Made by a program: the position numbers and the translations under genes. DNA of 64,000 nucleotides from Tricharina praecox (taxonomy: Eukaryota). The notes under the pieces were generated by a model. The model worked only from the letters and a program-made list of their open reading frames with translations, had not been told where the DNA came from and searched no databases. The DNA is taken from positions 496,001 to 560,000 of the forward strand of contig NW_026250427.1 in NCBI RefSeq assembly GCF_024521635.1, read 5' to 3'. Numbering within the stretch: the first letter of the stretch is position 1; the number at the start of each line of letters is the position of its first letter. Below are positions 54,195 to 64,000 of this stretch, one piece after another.

Positions 54195-55792
54195 ATGCGC
54201 CTGCCCTCGATAATCCGGTACCTCCCGCTCAGCAACCCGCGTTTCCAACTCGTCGCCTTTCTCGCCCTGCACACACGGTACCGCACGGGCATTCCGATGG
54301 ACACGTTGATATCCACGCTTCCGGGGATCGATCCGCCGTCGCCGCGCACCCGCCGTCCTACGCCGCCGCCCCACGTCAACCCGCCAAAGAGGGAGAAGAA
54401 GTCGCAGAAGGAACGACGCAGGAATGTTACTAAGTTCGTTAATCAGCCGCCGGATCCACTCTATTACTTTGAGGATGGCCTGAGAAAGGTCCACCCGTAT
54501 TACTTCACGTTCAATACGTTCTGTAAAGAACGCTGGAGGGGGATGACGCTGCTAGAGGTCTTCAGCAGCGAGTTTAGGGATCGCCCGGTCGAGTACTATG
54601 TCGGTTCGCCCTTTTGTCCCCCGACCCCGAGCCACGCGCGAAAGACAGAGGGAATTGGGGGTGCTGACGGTCGTAGAGAGATGCCATCGCGGCGGGCACC
54701 GTCTACGTCTCAGGCACGGACCGGGGCTCGGTGCTTGCCGCGTCGCCGCGGTCAGGCCTTGACACGATCGTCAAGAACGGCGACATGATCTCGCACACTA
54801 TGCACCGGCACGAGCCGCCGGTCACCGGCGAGCCGATCGGTATCGTGTTCGAAGACGACAACATCATGGCCATCTCGAAGCCTGCTGGTGTCCCTGTACA
54901 CCCCACCGGCAGGTACAATTACAACTCGGTCACTGAGATTTTGAGGTCCATGAGGCCGGGGTTTAATCCACTGCGTATGTGCTGTGTGTGCCGGGAGGGG
55001 TTGTGGGGGCGGGGTGAGGGCGACGGCTGATGCGGAGATATGCAGCGTGTAATAGGCTGGATAGGTTGACGAGCGGGCTCATGTTCATTGCAAAGACGAG
55101 GGAGGGCGCCGACGCCTTCATGAACCAGATGCAAGCGCGGACGATACGGAAGCAATACGTGGCGCGGGTGAAGGGGGAGTTTCCGAAGTACGCACGCATC
55201 CACATCTTCCCCCCACCTGCAGCGCTGACAGGAAACCAGAGAAGACATAGTGTGCGACCAGCCGATCCTCCAGATCTCGCCGAAGCTCGGACTGAACCGC
55301 GTCAAGGCGGACGGCAAGCACGCAAAGACGCTGTTCCGGCGGCTGCACTACAACGCGGAGAAAGACTACAGCATCGTCGAGTGCCACCCGTACACAGGGC
55401 GCACGCACCAGCTGCGCGTACACCTGCAGTTTCTGGGCCACCCCATCTCCAACGACCCCATCTACTGCAACCGTAAGGTGTTCGGTGCGAACCTGGGCAA
55501 GGGCGGCGAGGGCGACGACGAGGATATCATCACCCGCCTCAACCGCATGGGCAAGAGTGAGGTCGCGGAGGCGGAGGCGTACCACGACGAGATGATGTCG
55601 GACCATGCTAGGAAGAAGGCCGAGAAGATGACAGGCGGCCTCTGTGATATCTGCGATACCCCGCTGTATTCGGACCCGGGCCCCCACGAGCTGGGCATAT
55701 ATCTCCACGCTAAGAGGTATGCCTGCGAGGATGGAACGTGGGAGTACGAAACCAGTCTGCCTGAGTGGGCGACTGTGAGGGACGGGGAATAG
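54195..55792 (+). CDS. RluA-family tRNA pseudouridine(32) synthase (Rib2/Pus9-like)
   Basis: [45 protein letters not shown], catalytic [35 protein letters not shown]; three introns; second in-frame ATG at 54297. Confidence 0.9.
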
Positions 55793-57549
55793 ATGGAGGG
55801 ATGGGGGATGGGGGAATACCTAGAGCACTGTACCAATAAACCGAGATGATGATGTCAAGCAGTCTATCCACCGCAATAGAGTTTAGTGCAACCTGGCAGT
55901 GCTACATAAAAGCCAATCTTGGATCGGACCTTGTGGGGTTGGTTGTTGCCCGGACTGGATCCTCCGTTTTACAGGCGTATCGAGACGGTGGGGTGATACT
56001 GGTGACCGATCATCGGCGAGGTTGACGACGCAGTGGGGAAAAAGAGTTTTTTGCTTTGTTTCCATGACGATGTACATATCAGATGATACATCCAATCCTG
56101 TCTTGCCCCCCCGCCACCCCGCCCCGATCGTCGAAGGCGGAAGCGAAAGGTAAAAGCCGAAGGCGAAAGGCGAAGGCGAAAGGCAAATACAATGCCCATC
56201 CCCCACTACATACCGTATCGGGACAAAGTAAAAGTGATAAAGGAAGTGACAAAAAATCATGCAAGTGGTGGGCACTGGCGGAGAGTGGTCGGCGACGAAT
56301 GATACGCGGTGATGATGTACTCGCGGTGAACGCTGCGGTACTTGGTATACCGGTAGAGTAGAGTAGAGTGAATCCGTCCAAAAACCCCGTGCGATTACCG
56401 CCTTCAGCAGTTCTCGGCGACCTGTAACCGGCGAGTGACGTCCGGTTACTGGTAGATAGTGAGGGGCGCGAAGGAAGAGGCGGCTTGGCGTCATCGGTGA
56501 GCGCCGAAGACAGCAGACGTTGTCGGGACCTGGGTGGGACCTTTTATTTGGAGAGAGAGACCTCGCAGGGACCTAGTGGGACCAAGTGCTATGGAAGGGA
56601 GACTCGATGCGGCCGTTCAACGTTGAAATGTTTTCTGTTGCTGCTTTTCTGTTCTTCCTGCACGTCTTGTTTTCTTCTCATCACCATCGACCGAGGATTC
56701 TAGTTCACTTGATCACGTTTTTGTTCCTCACCCGTAGCCCGTTCTGGGGTCTCTCAGTACCGTACCTACCTCTTACCCAGATACTCCAGAGTGAGTTCAT
56801 CCGTCGGAAAAACATTTAAGCTGCCGCCATTCGAGTAGTGAATTCAGCAGTTCCCGAGGACCGACCCCCGGCGACCGGCGAGTGATATCTCGATACTAGT
56901 AGGAAGGTGGTACCCCCGCATGCATATCATAGGTACACTACATGCACGAATAGTAATCGCGCTGACCCCAAGTCCCAGCCAACCAGGCAACCCAGCCAAC
57001 CAATCCATACAGCCTTCCCGTCCCGTGTCTGACGCTTCCCGTGGGGGCGGGGGGTGGAGGGTGGAGGGGGGCGGAAAAGGGCGGCTAGCCGGGCCGAGCC
57101 GTCGAGCGGGGCAAGGATGCCAGGCTATTGGCTACTTATGTCAGACGTAACCACCAGTGTGGCTCCGCTCCACATTACGGTACTCAAGGAAAGCGGACGC
57201 CGGACGAGTGTTGCCTGGAATTGGAGAGTGCTACATACGCTGGTGGGACGTGTGAGCGATGGTCCTTTTTTTTGGCTATGGCTGCGAGTGACTGCGGTAC
57301 CTACATACTACGGAAGAGATGACTCGGGTGGAGATTTGCGGCACGACCGGGCGGGGAAGATGGCAGGTGGCAGGTGGTGGTGGGGGGTGGGGGGGGGGGG
57401 GGGCGACACACACACATGGGTGCCACCACCATCTACGAAGTGCGGATCAGCGCACGCACACATACGCACACACACGACGGGTGCACTACGAAGGCGGGAT
57501 CAACGCACGCACGCATGTCATCACGCGGAATACATATCGACGCAGCAGC

Positions 57550-58116
57550 AGCAGCGAACGAGAGATCCCGGGGTTATAGTATATTATTACGAACAAAAAT
57601 CCTCCAAGAAAACGAACGAAACGAACGAGCGAACGAACGAACGGAAAAAAACAAAAAACCACATGGACAAGCCCCATCCGTCCCACCGGCAGTTTCCCAT
57701 TCCTTATCGACCGGACGGACATGGACATGGACACGGACACGGAGACGTTCGAGGACGAGGGCAGTGCATGTCAATGTGGGTGGGTGGGTGGGTGTGGGTG
57801 TGTATGTGTGTGTGGCACCGCTGGTGAGAGGGGTGCTTTGGTGGACGGAACTGGGACTTTCGTTTCGGGTGATCAGGCCGCTAAGTTGGGTTGTCGTTCG
57901 TTCATTCATCCACCCTCATAAGATGGCTCGCGAAGGGTAAGAGTATGGTGATGGCGGGAGGACGGAGCCATCGAGGAGGATTGGCGGAGTTGGTGGAGTC
58001 GGTACCGTGTTAGAGTGGGGTTGATGGGATGGGGTGGGTCGGGGGGTGCTCACGGTGGGGTGGTGAGCACCACCGAGCAAAAACCGAGTTGGGAGAGGTG
58101 GGAGGGAGAATATATA
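57550..58116 (-). ncRNA. Putative non-coding (or micropeptide) transcription unit, paralog 1
   Basis: TATATA at 58116-58111; hairpin GGTGCTCAC/GTGAGCACC at 58071-58045; motif TACCCTTCGCGAGCCATCTTAT at 57939-57918; U-rich then AT-rich 3' region near 57660-57560. Boundaries inferred. Confidence 0.4.
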
Positions 58117-58820
58117 CCCTTCCTGAATCCTGACGACACTGCCTCCTCTTCACCGCTTGGGGGCGACGGGGACACTCTTCCGAAACGTGTGTGTGTGAGA
58201 GTGTGTGTGAGAGTGTGTGTCGTATGCGAGTGTGTGTGTCTGTGTCTCGGGGCGGGGGCGGTGTGAGGTGTGAGGTGTGAATGGGAGTGGGTGGGTGGGT
58301 GGGTTTCGGTGTGGGTGAGTTTATGGTGTGGGTGGGAAGTAGTGACGAATTGCTTTTTCTTCTAGACTCTACCTGCACCATGCAACTTCGGCACTCCCGC
58401 AACTCATCGCGAATCGATGATCTCCCCCTGTCGAAGGGCCACCCCGCCCGCGCCCGCACCCGAGCCCCCCGCCGCCCCGCCCCCGCCTCCGCCCCACCTA
58501 CATATCGCCAACTGCCCTTGAGTTACGTATTTTTAAAGGCGGAAAACTCTCGTATACTTCGGGAAAGCCCTCGCGAGTTGCCGGGGAGATGCTGGGGCGA
58601 AGCGCCCCACCTCCACGCGAATGCGTTGAATATCCACGGAGATGCGCCATGATTCTGGGTCTGGTCCGATTGCGGCTTGTGCAACAAGCGGAGTCGAGAT
58701 CCGCATGTTGTCAGTCGTTCCGTTTTGCATGCATGCAGCGAATCTCCACATCTGGCCCTTCACGACAACCACACGCTCACAGTCGGCGTTCTTCTTGTCA
58801 CTAAACGGCTTCCTCCGTCC

Positions 58821-58863
58821 CACCACCACCACCACCACCACCACCACCACCACCACCACCACC
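58821..58863 (+). repeat. (CAC)n microsatellite
   Basis: About 14 tandem trinucleotides. Confidence 0.9.
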
Positions 58864-60632
58864 CCGAATGCCCTCTAACTATAGTGGAGTAGAGTAACGC
58901 CGCTCCAACCTGCCTTCAGCATTCCCATCCGAGGACTCGAAGCAGCGGACGCCCAGAAAAAAGAAAAACCCTTCCACTACATGGGAATATTGCCAGACGA
59001 TGCGGCAGTGTGTGCGGACATGCACGTGGCTTGCCGCTGGACGGACTCCAAAGCCGGTTACCTACAGGATCAGCAGGTGGTAGGTATGTACGGTATTCGG
59101 GACTCCGAAGTAGGTAGATATCATACTTCGCACCCGCTGCACCAAGAAGAAGTGACGGATGGTTGGCTGTGGGATGCTGCAGTGCAGTCTCGGATAAGCC
59201 CAGGCTTAGTTCGCGGGCGGCTGGATATCTCTAGAGTACCGGTGGACTATCTACTCACATACGGTACTATACCGAGTCCTTCGTGTTGGGTTGCCGTTGG
59301 TCATGGGTGTTCTGCGACTCTGTGGGCGAGCAGGTGTCGCCTTCCAAATCATCCTCATGTTTAAAGGCATATCGTACTCTGCTATACCCCCCTTCCCCTC
59401 GGTTGCAGCGCTGCATATGGATGCCCCACCATCCGTTTCGTTGCGGCCTGGTCTGGCTCCAAAGGGCGCCATCACCTCCGCCATCACCGTCACCGTGATC
59501 GATTTGCAGAGGAACTCATCCGAGGGGACGCCCTAGAGAGGGAGGACCACCTGCTATTGGCGTGCCATCTGTGGTAGGATTCAAGTGTGTAGAGTCCCTA
59601 TCACTGGCTCCGCAGATTCCATGAGAGCTGCATACCCGAACCTTCCGTGTTTAGGACCATTTACTAGTCGATGCCCTTCCGTAGCGTCATCGCCTCGGTT
59701 GGCTTAAGGTTCGCGCCGCGCTCGGGGAGTTCGGGATGTCGCAACATCTCGGGTTGTTTCCGACGATTTCTTCGAGAACCGGCCGATGTGCATATCTTCG
59801 AGTGCGATTTGATTTGATCCGATCTGAGAATGGACGGAAACTCGTCCCCTCGGAGATGGCAGTTCGACTTTCGACTTTGGGGCACACCCGCCAAGAACCG
59901 CTGAAACCAAGTCTTGGATTCTAGAACTCGAGCTGGAGGCATGGCAATATCGAAACATAACGGTGTATAGTACGCAAAGCTTGGATGGATGATCCGGTGG
60001 CAGGTGCTCAAAGCCTCAGATTGTCTGCCTGACTGACATAGGTATTATTCGGCTAATCACCAACCTGCAGAATCCAGATCGGTCTGGATCCTACATATAG
60101 TATGCTTACTACCTAGTACATACGGCCCGGCCCAGCACGTTTCACCACCGCACTGATGTCGTATGATCCGAATAACCTCCGGTTCTAGAGCAATCCCGCC
60201 CCTCCGTTTCGTTTCGGCCTGGGCTAGGTGGGTGGCTTCACCACCGGCCATCCGACCAAAGCCGGGTGGCTTGTCTTGCGATCCATGACGGATATGACGG
60301 ACGAGGAAGGAGACACCAACCAGAGCGCTTCTATGTCATAGATTCAATGATTTATAGATTTATAGGTAGAAGAACGATGTCAATGTTAATGAGGACTTTC
60401 GCAGGTCGTGAGGGATGGTTTGCGGGATCGTTTTAGGCTTAGTGAGGTGACAAAAAAGCGCTACCGGTTAAATTCGAGATCCCTCGCGCTAGAGATACCG
60501 CGATGAGTCTCTTCAACCCGCACCCGCGAGGGCCAACTAGTACGAGTGGGATGGTCAACTTAGGCATAGCGAGTGTCTGCTCCTAGGTGAATGGGGAGTA
60601 GCGTTGAGAAGGAGAGTTGTTGTATTGGTCTT

Positions 60633-61172
60633 TGTTACGTATAAGTGTCCTCCAGAAAGCATTAGAAGAGTCAACCAACCCACACAGTTAGTCATTGAAG
60701 GAATGACTCTAGTCAATTAGTAGGAATGACTTTAGTCAATGAATAGGAATGACTCTGGTCATTGAGGGAATGACTCTAGTCATCGAGCAGGAATGACTCC
60801 AGTCACCGAGCAGGAATGACTGAGTAAACCCGCGAGACTCGAATAAAATACCGACCTAGACAGTCTATTGAAGTTCATGCCGACAGTGTGGTGATGCTGA
60901 CCTTCGCGATGCGCATCATGGTAATGTTGAAGTACTCCTGTCTATACTGTGGTGCTCTGCTCTCCTCTCGGCGCCGCTGTACTCTGCTCTCCTCTGTCCC
61001 GGAGAATTTTTACTGAGTCCACACTAATTAAACCACTAATTTCGAGAGTAGTCCACTTTTTCTCAGCCCGCACCTACGGTGACCTCAGAGTTGCGAAACG
61101 CCTTTTCTTTTCACTTAAGGGCTCGGCGCGCTAACAACCCGCCTCACAGAGATCCCTCAGAACTGCGTAACT
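60633..61172. mobile_element. Possible solo LTR
   Basis: Begins TGTTACG and ends CGTAACT (1 mismatch from a perfect TG..CA terminal inverted repeat), 540 bp, internal tandem array and AATAAA; no target-site duplication found. Confidence 0.3.
60690..60823 (+). repeat. Tandem array of six about 23-bp units with core GGAATGACT
   Basis: Core at 60700, 60723, 60746, 60767, 60790, 60813. Confidence 0.9.
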
Positions 61173-62409
61173 CCTCTAATGAGGTTCCTAGCCTTCTAGG
61201 TTATCCGTTATCGTATATACCGTACCGGTGCGGCGGTTGAGCCGACGCCCCATTCCCATTCAGCCCAATCTACCTAGTAGATATCTATACTAGTATATTC
61301 CTACCCCGCCTAGATGATGTACCAGTGGATCATAGATATCGATCTCGCTATAGTTAGTACATGTGCCTAATGGTAATGCAACCGGTGCAAGTAGTAAGTA
61401 CGCTGTGGACGGATCTGGATTCTGGACTCGATGGTGGCGTGAGTAAGGCATCACGTAAACTTGCTGTGATTTCATCTCATCTCCACACGGGGCCTGATAA
61501 TGCACTTGTGCTTACCGTGGCGAAGGCAGCTGGTGCACGCGGGGGAAGGTGAAGAAGAAAACGAGGAGGGGGAGGCAGAGACGTCATGACACACCTACTT
61601 ATGTAATATACGGGGATCCTATAATAGCAGGAAGATTACTCGGAAGTGACGGGTCTGAATTTTTGAAAGCCAGCCCTGAGCCTGGTGACCGCATGTCTGT
61701 GTGCAGGTGCAGATAAATCATGGAGTCACTGGTCGCTGTTCGTCTGGTTCCGGTGATCACTCGCATATGGTATGCCATCCTACCATCCTTCAGCTCATCG
61801 TCTAGTTAGTAGTTACCCACCGATTTTCCCCATCTATGCTAGATTCTAGATTCCAGATTCCAGTGGCTTCCGGTTCGACGGTGTTACTTTCTCCTGGATC
61901 GAGTATCCCTCGCAGTAGGTACCGTAGACACTAGGCGGTAGCTCATACCCGACAAAGTAACTCCTTCCTTCAGGCTTCCAAGTTCCACTGTCCAGCCGAG
62001 ACTCGAGACTCAACATTGGACAAAGGTGAAAGCCATACAATGAGCAATCTCCACCTTGGGGCTATTATTAGACGGTCCTTGAAGGGAGGGAACTTGAAAG
62101 GGTACTTAGGGCAGGCTTGAGGGCCAACGCCAGAGAATGTAGGGTACTAAGATGGCTACTGGCTGAGTGGCTTGTTCAACGGAAACGAATTTCTGACCGA
62201 CTCGTTAGATGCGTCGCAATAAGTTGCTATATCGTATCGTATGCCAGAGCCAAGTTTCGGGTGAGGGGTTTGGCAGGAGGTAGTGTTCCTTGGACCCTGG
62301 ACCATGAATGTTCTCTCTCCCCTCTCTAGACGATGACCAATGGCCGGATCGGGAACTTCACAGTTGAGTAGGTGGGTGTATGGTAGGTATAAGGTAGGTA
62401 TATGGTGGG

Positions 62410-63370
62410 TATAAAACCATCTTCTGCCCCCACGGCCTCACCAATTCTCGTTCGGTGGTGCTCACCTCCACCATCACCTTCACCACCAACGTGAGCACCA
62501 CTCGTCCACTCTTTACCTCCGGATACCGGATTCCATCACACAATCACACCATCACATATTCCTCCTCCTACTCCTCCTACCCTCCCACCTTCCACCCTTC
62601 GAGGGCCATCTTATCTGTGGATCATGGACGGTGCCAGCCTCAGGTGGCTTACCTGCCCGCCTCGAGGCCGCGGTTCGCCGTACGGGCCATAGGGGCGGTT
62701 CACACACCATCACATACTACTTCTCCTACCCGCCTACCCTCCCATCCTCCTACCCTTCGAGCACCATCTTATCAAGTGGAGTGTGTGCGGTGGATTAATC
62801 ATTATCTGCCCGCCTCGTGGCCGCGGTTCGCACACCCTTACATACTGCCGTAATCCTCCTACCCGCCTACACTTCTACACTCCTACCCTTCGAGAGCCAT
62901 CTTATCAGTGGAGTATGGACGGTGGAAAACATACCCGCCTCGAGGCCGCAGTTCGGCCCGATCACCACCCGCCGTCTCAAACCACACCACTCCACAGTAC
63001 TGCACACTCACCACCCAGCTCGGGATATAGAGCTTCGACAAAAAGTTTACGGAAAAGATAATGTGGGTTTGGGCGGAGGGTGATGTTGCTGCGCCGCAGA
63101 CGGGATGGGCGGGTGGAATATATCAGGAAACACAGAAAAAGAGACCGGGAACTGAGACTGGGATAGAGACCGAAACCGAGAGCGAGAGCAGCTGGGAATG
63201 TAAGTTCGGGGTTGGGGTTGCGGGGAGGATTGGGAAGGGTGATTTGGCTTCGTTTCTCTGGATTCTGGAAGAAGGGAAATGCCTCTGTTCTTGGTTCGTG
63301 GTTCTTGGTTCTTGGGGATGGTGGAGTGTTGTCTATGATAATATGAAAGCATTCTATCCCGGTGCTTCGT
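62410..63370 (+). ncRNA. Putative non-coding transcription unit, paralog 2 (with triplicated motif)
   Basis: TATAAAA at 62410; 11-bp hairpin GTGGTGCTCAC/GTGAGCACCAC at 62455-62501; three copies of ACCCTTCGAGnnCCATCTTATC at 62593, 62751, 62884; AT-rich 3' signal near 63335-63355. Boundaries inferred. Confidence 0.4.
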
Positions 63371-64000
63371 CCGATGTCTTCTGAACGTGAATGCGTGAAT
63401 GCGTGCACTGTGCACGGTGGTTACGCGGTTTTTTGATTCAACGTAGGTATCTATAGTAGACTATGGCGGCGGCGGCCGAGGAAGAAGCGGAAGTTGTAGC
63501 TTGGGAATTTGGGATGACCGCTGGTAAGGCAGGGGATGAGTTGTAGATCCAGTAGGGAGATATAGAAGACACTCAACAGAGGTGCTCTACTCTGCAGGAA
63601 CGGCGCGGACAGGGGTGTCGAGGCAGAAATCGCCCTTCGGAACATCATTCGGGCCTGCCCTCTGAGTTCATTCATTCTCCTGGCGGACATGGGTTGTCTG
63701 CTGCCGTTGGTTATTAGGTTTATGTACCAGCTGGGGAGGACGGGAGCCCGTCGTGACTCGTGACGTCCATGCAAGCGCTGCCGTCTTTGCAGGGCTGGAG
63801 AACTCCACCCACCGCACTACATACCTGTCATGTGTACCGGTGTCACTTGTTGCGGGATCTTCGCTAGTAACGATGGCTCCTTAGCGGGTACATATCGCTG
63901 CTGCCCGTCTCGCGGGTCCCAGCGAACTGGAAAGCTAGAGGACGCGTCGTGTATATATAATCGCGGCTGACGTTGCGCTCGCCCATCTCGGGTATCGGGC

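Follow-up and report, generated by a model that had tools for sequence, protein, structure and literature searches.

Two diverged paralogous loci of Tricharina praecox with a 5' hairpin and a repeated 21-nt motif, one of them very abundantly transcribed, are probably members of a new non-coding RNA family

Introduction

Long non-coding RNAs (lncRNAs) that carry a reiterated motif can dock or sequester RNA-binding proteins, as NORAD does with PUMILIO in mammals and meiRNA does with Mmi1, through its DSR motifs, in fission yeast. Very abundant transcripts with short open reading frames (ORFs) represent a second relevant class and, in filamentous ascomycetes, include the lipopeptide pheromone precursors (mfa-1/ppg2 type) and the copper metallothioneins. 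Finally, HIV-1 TAR is a 5'-terminal hairpin of an RNA polymerase II (Pol II) transcript, and cap-proximal hairpins have been used experimentally against translation or decay. To our knowledge, few functional lncRNAs are known from filamentous fungi, and almost none comes with a defined sequence element. Here we describe two divergently oriented loci, copy A and copy B, within a 64-kb stretch of the T. praecox genome (contig NW_026250427.1, positions 496,001 to 560,000; "the window" hereafter, with position 1 as its first letter). They are best read as a pair of paralogues that Pol II transcribes into abundant, mRNA-like non-coding RNAs carrying a cap-proximal hairpin and a reiterated, putative binding motif, and they probably constitute a new non-coding RNA family.

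Copies A and B resemble NORAD and meiRNA in being apparently Pol II-transcribed, mRNA-like, abundant and without a conserved ORF, in that the motif is kept as its flanks drift, and in the three tandem modules of copy B. They differ in that their motif matches no binding site that we can name and copy A has a single motif, and the comparison here is between two loci of one genome. With the pheromone and metallothionein genes, which likewise sometimes occur at two paralogous loci, they share a TATA box, a transcript of ~0.5 kb, a tiny first ORF, a long 3' part and a very high RNA level; unlike these genes, however, they have no ORF ending in a CaaX box, the 21-amino-acid (aa) first ORF has no Cys, and no ORF is common to the two copies. 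Like HIV-1 TAR, the hairpin is predicted to be stable and begins at, or a few nucleotides from, position +1, but it is much shorter, lacks a bulge motif, and its proposed function is inferred only.

Results

Judged by sequence comparison, copies A and B are strongly diverged, old paralogues that are homologous from end to end. Copy A lies on the minus strand (58119 to 57566, ~0.5 kb) and copy B on the plus strand (62407 to ~63365, ~0.9 kb). A preliminary description, made from the sequence of the window, had proposed that both segments share one ordered architecture, and reading, alignment and pattern search found every described element at its place (Table 1): a GGGTATA box, a hairpin of the form GGTGCTCAC-loop-GTGAGCACC with a perfect 9-bp stem, the 21-nt motif ACCCTTCGnGnnCCATCTTAT, the late block CGGCCYGATCACC, and similar tails (TAATAATATACTATAACCCC followed by GGG in copy A, GATAATATGAAAGCATTCTATCCCGG in copy B). 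Two details of that description had to be corrected. The order of TATA box and 5' arm stands, but their distance is not 45-47 nt: counted from the G of GGGTATA, the 15-nt 5' arm begins 43 nt downstream in copy A (at 58076) and 45 nt downstream in copy B (at 62452). Further, the motif is indeed common to both loci but occurs four times rather than twice, that is, once in copy A (106 nt past the hairpin) and three times in copy B (the first 94 nt past the hairpin). The three motif units of copy B are arranged in tandem, spaced by 158 and 133 nt, and have diverged (61-76% alike over a 71-nt reference copy), and each also retains a second block, CCCGCCTCG(A/T)GGCCGC(G/A)GTTCG; the CGGCC block comes after the third unit.

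The 5' arm itself, TCGGTGGTGCTCACC, is identical at 15/15 positions in the two copies and, together with islands of 10/10 and 17/21 identities, stands amid otherwise unalignable sequence. Two matches to the hairpin pattern were found in the window compared with none in any of 100 dinucleotide-preserving shuffles, and four matches to the motif (CCCTTCGnGnnCCATCTTAT, up to two mismatches), again compared with none in any of 100 shuffles. BLASTN between the two copies gave E-values of 1e-7 and 2e-6 across the hairpin-to-motif part, and additional colinear blocks were recognized (CCACTCT..GGTACCG, CCATCAC(C)ATACT and GTGGA..ATG.ACG). These shared colinear blocks, coupled to the like 3' ends, indicate homology from the TATA box to the tail.

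The proposal that both loci are transcribed is borne out by RNA contigs from three studies that cover copies A and B. Contigs of four data sets were compared with positions 56500-64000 (7.5 kb): X1 and X2, from two studies and labelled 'RNA?' (X1 possibly from the same project as the genome sequence), and X3 and X4, two soil metatranscriptome runs of the third. The X1 and X2 contigs behave as RNA, with six of their seven joints being GT..AG or CT..AC and their depth spanning five orders of magnitude. Copy A reaches a word depth of 153,187 (X1) and 188,270 (X2) in the bin 57755-58005, and 30,141 and 20,324, respectively, in the bin 58006-58256, a depth in line with matches to only the first ~65 nt of that bin; all bins beyond copy A have depths between 0 and ~1,000. 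That is, the RNA depth of copy A is hundreds-fold or more above that of the remaining 7.5 kb. Stretches with no RNA cover (e.g., 58508-58758) were not counted as silent. The soil contigs cover copy A at 57566/57582-57710 and 57818-58071 with 0-3 differences from the window, and X3 also covers copy B at 62875-63139.

The ends of the copy A transcript are consistent with its sequence signals. Contigs of both X3 and X4 start at 58071, at the G that opens the hairpin on the minus strand, while weaker X1 cover (~1,000) extending to ~58313 suggests that some transcripts start further upstream. Among the 12 listed of 39 loose contig ends, seven carry tails that we take to be adapter sequence; six of these ends lie before 57564, 57566 (twice), 57602, 57830 and 57880 and one behind 58053, and the ends at 57564-57566 mark the 3' end of the RNA. 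In all seven, read 1 is on the plus strand, a uniform orientation that, under the usual deoxyuridine triphosphate (dUTP) protocol, places the RNA on the minus strand. The minus strand also fits both ends, with the TATA box ~45 nt before 58071 and AAUAAU/UAUAUA, of a type that presumably represents fungal 3' end signals, ~15 nt before 57566. Transcription of copy A from the plus strand was rejected since neither end would then have a promoter or 3' signal; under that orientation, the deeper 57818-58071 part would be the 3' end. RNA polymerase III (Pol III) terminates once it meets a stretch of at least four T, and the X3 (57582-57710) and X4 (57566-57710) contigs cross the T6GT7 run at 57645-57658, so copy A is not a Pol III product. 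The TATA box and the 3' signals are best read as those of a probable Pol II transcript with a putative cap and poly(A) tail. 

The 5' half of copy A (57818-58071) is 6-18 times deeper than the 3' part (57566-57710) in X1 and X2, but the excess is only 1.2-1.9-fold in X3 and X4. Possibly, a shorter species of 190-250 nt, ending at 57880 or 57830, exists at higher abundance.

Copy B is covered by one contig in X1 (61684-62138 joined to 62209-63520; depth 156) and one in X2 (61715-63361; depth 982). The intron at 62139-62208 (70 nt, GT..AG, with a CTGAC branch site) assigns this contig to the plus strand, and since the spliced contig runs from at least 61684 through the TATA box, transcription enters copy B from upstream. 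Thus, the expectation that transcripts start at the TATA box and hairpin holds for copy A, with its 5' end at the first hairpin base, and is not supported by the contigs of copy B. The upstream transcript (61684-62456) contains no ORF over 32 aa. Both RNAs are longer than the 200 nt that define mRNA-like lncRNAs (~57566-58071 for copy A; the contig 61684-63520, intron removed, for copy B).

As to coding potential, translation judged from the sequence gives no ORF that the two copies have in common. In the copy A RNA, the first AUG (+101, context UCGAUGG) opens a 21-aa ORF (MAPSSRHHHTLTLREPSYEGG) that reads the motif as TLREPSY and has no ATG-led counterpart in copy B. The colinear blocks of the two copies are offset by 1, 0, 1, 2 and 1 (modulo 3), and in copy B the only ATG-led ORFs over the second unit block read it in differing frames. 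The longest ORFs (111 aa in copy A, 107 aa in copy B) are unrelated to each other (E = 22) and lie in A-poor sequence, in which stop codons are rare. Protein searches with the plus strand of 57566-57937, the 107-aa ORF and the 111-aa ORF, made against 13, 2 and 4 word-sharing candidates, respectively, of similar length, returned nothing at E <= 0.01; Pfam gave no match for a 151-aa open frame of copy B; and neither transcript has an ORF ending in a CaaX box. For a lipopeptide pheromone, loose matches at 59671 (CDLI) and 59989 (CLPD) were rejected, being outside both loci and not CaaX-like, and the metallothionein and pheromone readings each fail a defining feature.

The 5' hairpin is the element for which RNA structure is supported. 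It folds at -21.2 kcal/mol in copy A (z -3.7; 1 of 200 shuffles as stable) and at -20.9 kcal/mol in copy B (z -5.1; 0 of 200). The two loops differ in length (9 vs. 25 nt) and in sequence, and beyond the core stem the shared 5' arm pairs with a different 3' arm extension in each copy (CC-CCGA vs. AC-U-CG), a combination that fits a pairing constraint better than a DNA site of fixed spacing. A stem of the type CUCC(U)AC/GUGGAG encloses a motif-bearing loop in all four units, and a consensus fold of the units has 18 pairs, two of them with a double change, and a covariation term of +0.62, which gives no support at n = 4. RNA structure, as proposed earlier, is hence supported for the hairpin, the rest of the RNA and the units folding no better than shuffles. 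Another early suggestion, a precursor of microRNA-like RNAs, is not supported: such precursors are long, imperfect hairpins from which discrete RNAs of 19-25 nt arise, and the only significant hairpin here has 9-13 bp, which is short for a Dicer substrate. In addition, the sense strand carries complements of the motif core, one of 8 nt at the first AUG of copy A (57964-57971; GAUGGCUC / GATGGCTC), which the predicted fold pairs with the motif, and one of 10 nt within the intron upstream of copy B (62149-62158; UAAGAUGGCU / TAAGATGGCT).

Comparison with known families was negative throughout. The covariance models of Rfam 15 gave no match at gathering scores across the 64-kb window, in agreement with the preliminary description, leaving unmatched the small nuclear (snRNA) and small nucleolar RNAs (snoRNA), signal recognition particle (SRP) RNA, RNase P/MRP, telomerase RNA, ribozymes and riboswitches; at E <= 1, only sR53 appeared within 55000-64000, on the opposite strand and with 21 bits vs. 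a cut-off of 49 (E = 0.21). Copy A does bear a likeness to a box C/D snoRNA in that GGGUG-GAUGAAUGA ... CUGA-U-CACCC recalls box C, box D and a terminal stem. However, its box C is non-canonical and the boxes degenerate, whereas copy B has CCGA or nothing at the place of box D and no UGAUGA, and its three units lack RUGAUGA and CUGA boxes; the assignment was rejected, as were hammerhead, H/ACA and U3 readings made by eye, for which core residues are missing and Rfam is silent.

Motif scans of metagenome contigs gave 11 loci, all with unrelated flanks and GC contents of 0.36-0.66, which we regard as chance matches (one has a single 9-nt hairpin arm, and none has the other three blocks checked); a scan of viral contigs gave one locus, likewise a chance match with no shared context. 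No description of such a gene was found in the literature searched, in which the sequence itself is not searchable.

Discussion

We assign a probability of about 0.55 to copies A and B being functional non-coding RNA genes. Among the options initially considered (lncRNA, microRNA-like precursor or micropeptide gene), the lncRNA is favored over the micropeptide because no ORF is common to the two paralogues.

Several results weigh against this interpretation. Contig depth is a rough measure of expression, and the depth of copy A was compared without a highly expressed reference gene. The strand of copy A rests on an assumed library type and on the fit to promoter and tail signals, while the RNA contigs of copy B begin upstream of its TATA box, so that use of 62407 as a promoter is putative. 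The hairpin arms are identical in both copies, which makes selection on DNA and on RNA indistinguishable there, and the comparison of two loci of one genome offers neither covariation nor cross-species conservation. Beyond the hairpin, the whole copy A RNA folds at z -1.6 (6 of 100 shuffles as stable) and the four units at z -0.08 to -0.99 (86, 30, 87 and 48 of 200 shuffles as stable); the stem enclosing the motif is matched by 16-48% of 300 shuffles and shows no double compensatory change; and the motif is not consistently in either a paired or a free state, its unpaired probability (0.42-0.56) being close to the average of the RNA. Moreover, in the frame of the 21-aa ORF, an Arg codon differs synonymously between copies (CGC vs. 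CGA). Finally, genomic copy number was judged within the 64-kb window only.

The synonymous change leads to the first alternative, namely that a 21-aa micropeptide is translated from the copy A RNA, with the motif conserved as the coding sequence for TLRxPSY and copy B being a decayed or regulatory relative. The ORF does open at the first AUG of the RNA, all four motifs read T-L-R-x-P-S-Y in one frame, and very abundant short-ORF transcripts are known in fungi (e.g., the pheromone and metallothionein genes). Nonetheless, all three motifs of copy B are retained although no ATG precedes any of them in frame and although the unit spacings of 158 and 133 nt, neither a multiple of three, put them in different phases. 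Read in another frame, the motif gives (Y/H)PS(R/S)(A/T)IL and uses three different Arg codons, which means that the synonymous change does not point to a single frame; more generally, the motif has changed at few nucleotides and in ways that several frames would allow, and these changes do not decide whether it is coding, whereas the lack of a common ORF does. The AUG, in addition, has a poor context (U at -3) and is predicted to pair with the motif, and a cap-proximal hairpin should impede scanning. We thus consider a micropeptide gene unlikely.

Alternatively, the shared blocks might act as DNA, that is, as palindromic or bipartite transcription factor sites or as core-promoter elements, a short way downstream of the start, that drive very high transcription of an RNA with no sequence-specific job. 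The hairpin arms form an inverted repeat at the start site, palindromic blocks occur in both copies (CGGTACCG in copy A; CCTCGAGG and CCGCGG in the units of copy B), and no RNA structure is supported past the hairpin, all of which would be in keeping with DNA elements. On the other hand, a spacer of 9 nt in one copy and 25 nt in the other is unusual for a dimeric DNA site, and the motifs are found 100-450 nt into the transcript, with the repeats occurring in copy B, the less expressed copy. This explanation appears quite improbable to us.

No more probable, in our assessment, is that the loci are transcribed relics of an inverted duplication or a mobile element (e.g., solo long terminal repeats [LTRs] or foldback ends), with the islands of identity being chance survivors or products of gene conversion. 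Such an origin would account for the inverted-repeat layout, with arms of ~0.5-0.9 kb flanking 4.3 kb that holds no recognizable gene, and a TATA box, start and poly(A) signal in one unit is the layout of an LTR as well. Also, of the contigs matching the region, 164 of 307 in X1 and 124 of 288 in X2 are only 90-99% alike and may be sequencing-error variants or other copies. Against this, there are no further motif or hairpin copies in the 64-kb window, window comparison and BLASTN show no colinear inverted similarity beyond the two transcripts, the GC content around the loci is 0.48-0.63 (no AT-rich relic), none of the six ORFs from 53,113 onward has a Pfam match or is a transposase or reverse transcriptase frame, and islands of identity in unalignable sequence are unlike neutral decay.

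A role through splicing signals, as in spliced-leader RNAs, with the 5'-splice-site-like GUGAGC that starts the 3' arm paired to a short first segment, is highly improbable: the Sm-like AUUUUUG near the copy A 3' end and the adapter-bearing end of one X2 contig exactly at the G of GUGAGC (58053) would suit it, but the would-be leaders differ in length (18 nt in copy A, 34 nt in copy B) and sequence, the RNA contigs, which drop rare forms, show no joint from the site, copy B has no Sm-like site, and trans-splicing is not known in fungi.

If copies A and B are functional non-coding RNA genes, how might they work? Cap-proximal hairpins hinder ribosome loading, decapping and 5'-3' decay; a hairpin with these effects near the cap would let the RNA pile up untranslated. 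The G-poor, C/A-rich stretch behind it would then display short conserved blocks, the strongest being the 21-nt motif, whose four copies have persisted as their surroundings drifted. A sequence-specific RNA-binding protein or a complementary RNA may dock at the motif, in which case copy B would be a three-site version of the docking RNA. We offer this docking or decoy mechanism tentatively and hold it to be doubtful.

It is also intriguing to hypothesize, as a long shot prompted by sequence resemblance, that these RNAs represent a novel type of regulatory RNA in fungi, very abundant and acting in trans. The sequence complementary to the motif (AUAAGAUGGCNCNCGAAGGGU) reads AUAAG-AUG-GCN-CNC-GAA-GG/GUARGA, that is, a start codon in good context and four codons, ending in a 5'-splice-site-like hexamer in three of the four copies. 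In an unlinked target, the region of initiation and the first splice site might be masked by such an RNA, which might instead titrate a factor recognizing sites of this kind; the hairpin would keep the RNA itself untranslated and stable, and copy B would again provide three sites.

Expression far above that of the remaining 7.5 kb, the defined 5'-terminal hairpin and a 21-nt motif whose four copies have withstood long divergence make the locus directly testable, and the RNA of both copies is present in soil metatranscriptome contigs too. Should orthologues exist in related fungi, the locus would define a new RNA family for Rfam and add a top-expressed, unannotated gene to genome annotations.

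Sequence features and genomic setting

Table 1. Features of copies A and B in window coordinates.
Feature	Positions	Strand	Basis
Copy A promoter, TATA box GGGTATATAT	58110..58119	-	sequence reading; ~45 nt upstream of RNA 5' end
Copy A 5' hairpin, GGUGCUCAC / 9-nt loop / GUGAGCACC	58045..58076	-	core 58045-58071; folding and shuffles
Copy A transcript, ~506 nt, very abundant	57566..58071	-	RNA contigs 57566-57710 and 57818-58071; adapter ends
Copy A first-AUG ORF, 21 aa, overlapping the motif, no copy B counterpart	57906..57971	-	ORF reading
Copy A motif ACCCTTCGCGAGCCATCTTAT	57918..57938	-	pattern search, alignment
Copy A late block CGGCCTGATCACC	57868..57880	-	sequence reading, alignment
Copy A 3' end region UAAUAAUAUACUAUAACCCC, then RNA end	57566..57595	-	sequence reading; fragment ends
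Upstream RNA contig part entering copy B, 70-nt intron 62139-62208	61684..62456	+	RNA contigs
Copy B TATA box GGGTATAAAA, putative promoter	62407..62416	+	sequence reading; RNA contigs run through
Copy B hairpin, 11-13 bp, 25-nt loop	62452..62502	+	core 62457-62499; folding and shuffles
Copy B unit 1, motif 62594-62614, block CCCGCCTCGAGGCCGCGGTTCG within 62643-62677	62545..62702	+	repeat comparison
Copy B unit 2, motif 62752-62772	62703..62835	+	repeat comparison
Copy B unit 3, motif 62885-62905, then CGGCCCGATCACC at 62954-62966	62836..62966	+	repeat comparison
Copy B 3' part, loosely homologous to the copy A 3' part, ending near GATAATATGAAAGCATTCTATCCC	62967..63365	+	alignment

A Pfam scan of the window ORFs shows ordinary genes up to ~53 kb (among them a semialdehyde dehydrogenase, an MFS transporter, Sec2, a G-patch protein, a ClC channel, GH72 and a HIT/DcpS-like protein) and no recognizable protein family from ~55 kb onward. 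Low-depth splicing was seen near the loci, on the plus strand (introns 56791-56847 and 56905-56976/56984) and on the minus strand (59177-59258 and 63701-63824); none of these transcripts (56790-56985, 59176-59259, 63700-63825) overlaps a recognizable protein family.

Copy A is flanked by long simple repeats (G22 at 57382-57403, a (GT)29-like repeat at 58187-58245 and (CCA)14.7 at 58820-58863); RNA-contig mapping skipped them, and cover there carries no information. At 60971-61147, 5-8 clustered differences separate the X1 and X2 contigs from the window, and 61 nt (61086-61146) with non-canonical CA..CA ends are missing from them; a difference between strains, or a second copy that has diverged, is a likelier cause than an intron.

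Roughly midway between the divergent loci, at 60688-60821, lies a tandem array of about six units of 21-23 nt, GGAATGACTNNAGTCA, each with an inverted TGACT..AGTCA pair that, we presume, resembles an AP-1/bZIP-type site. The array has an RNA contig depth of 50 (X1) and 20 (X2) and may be a shared upstream element of copies A and B.

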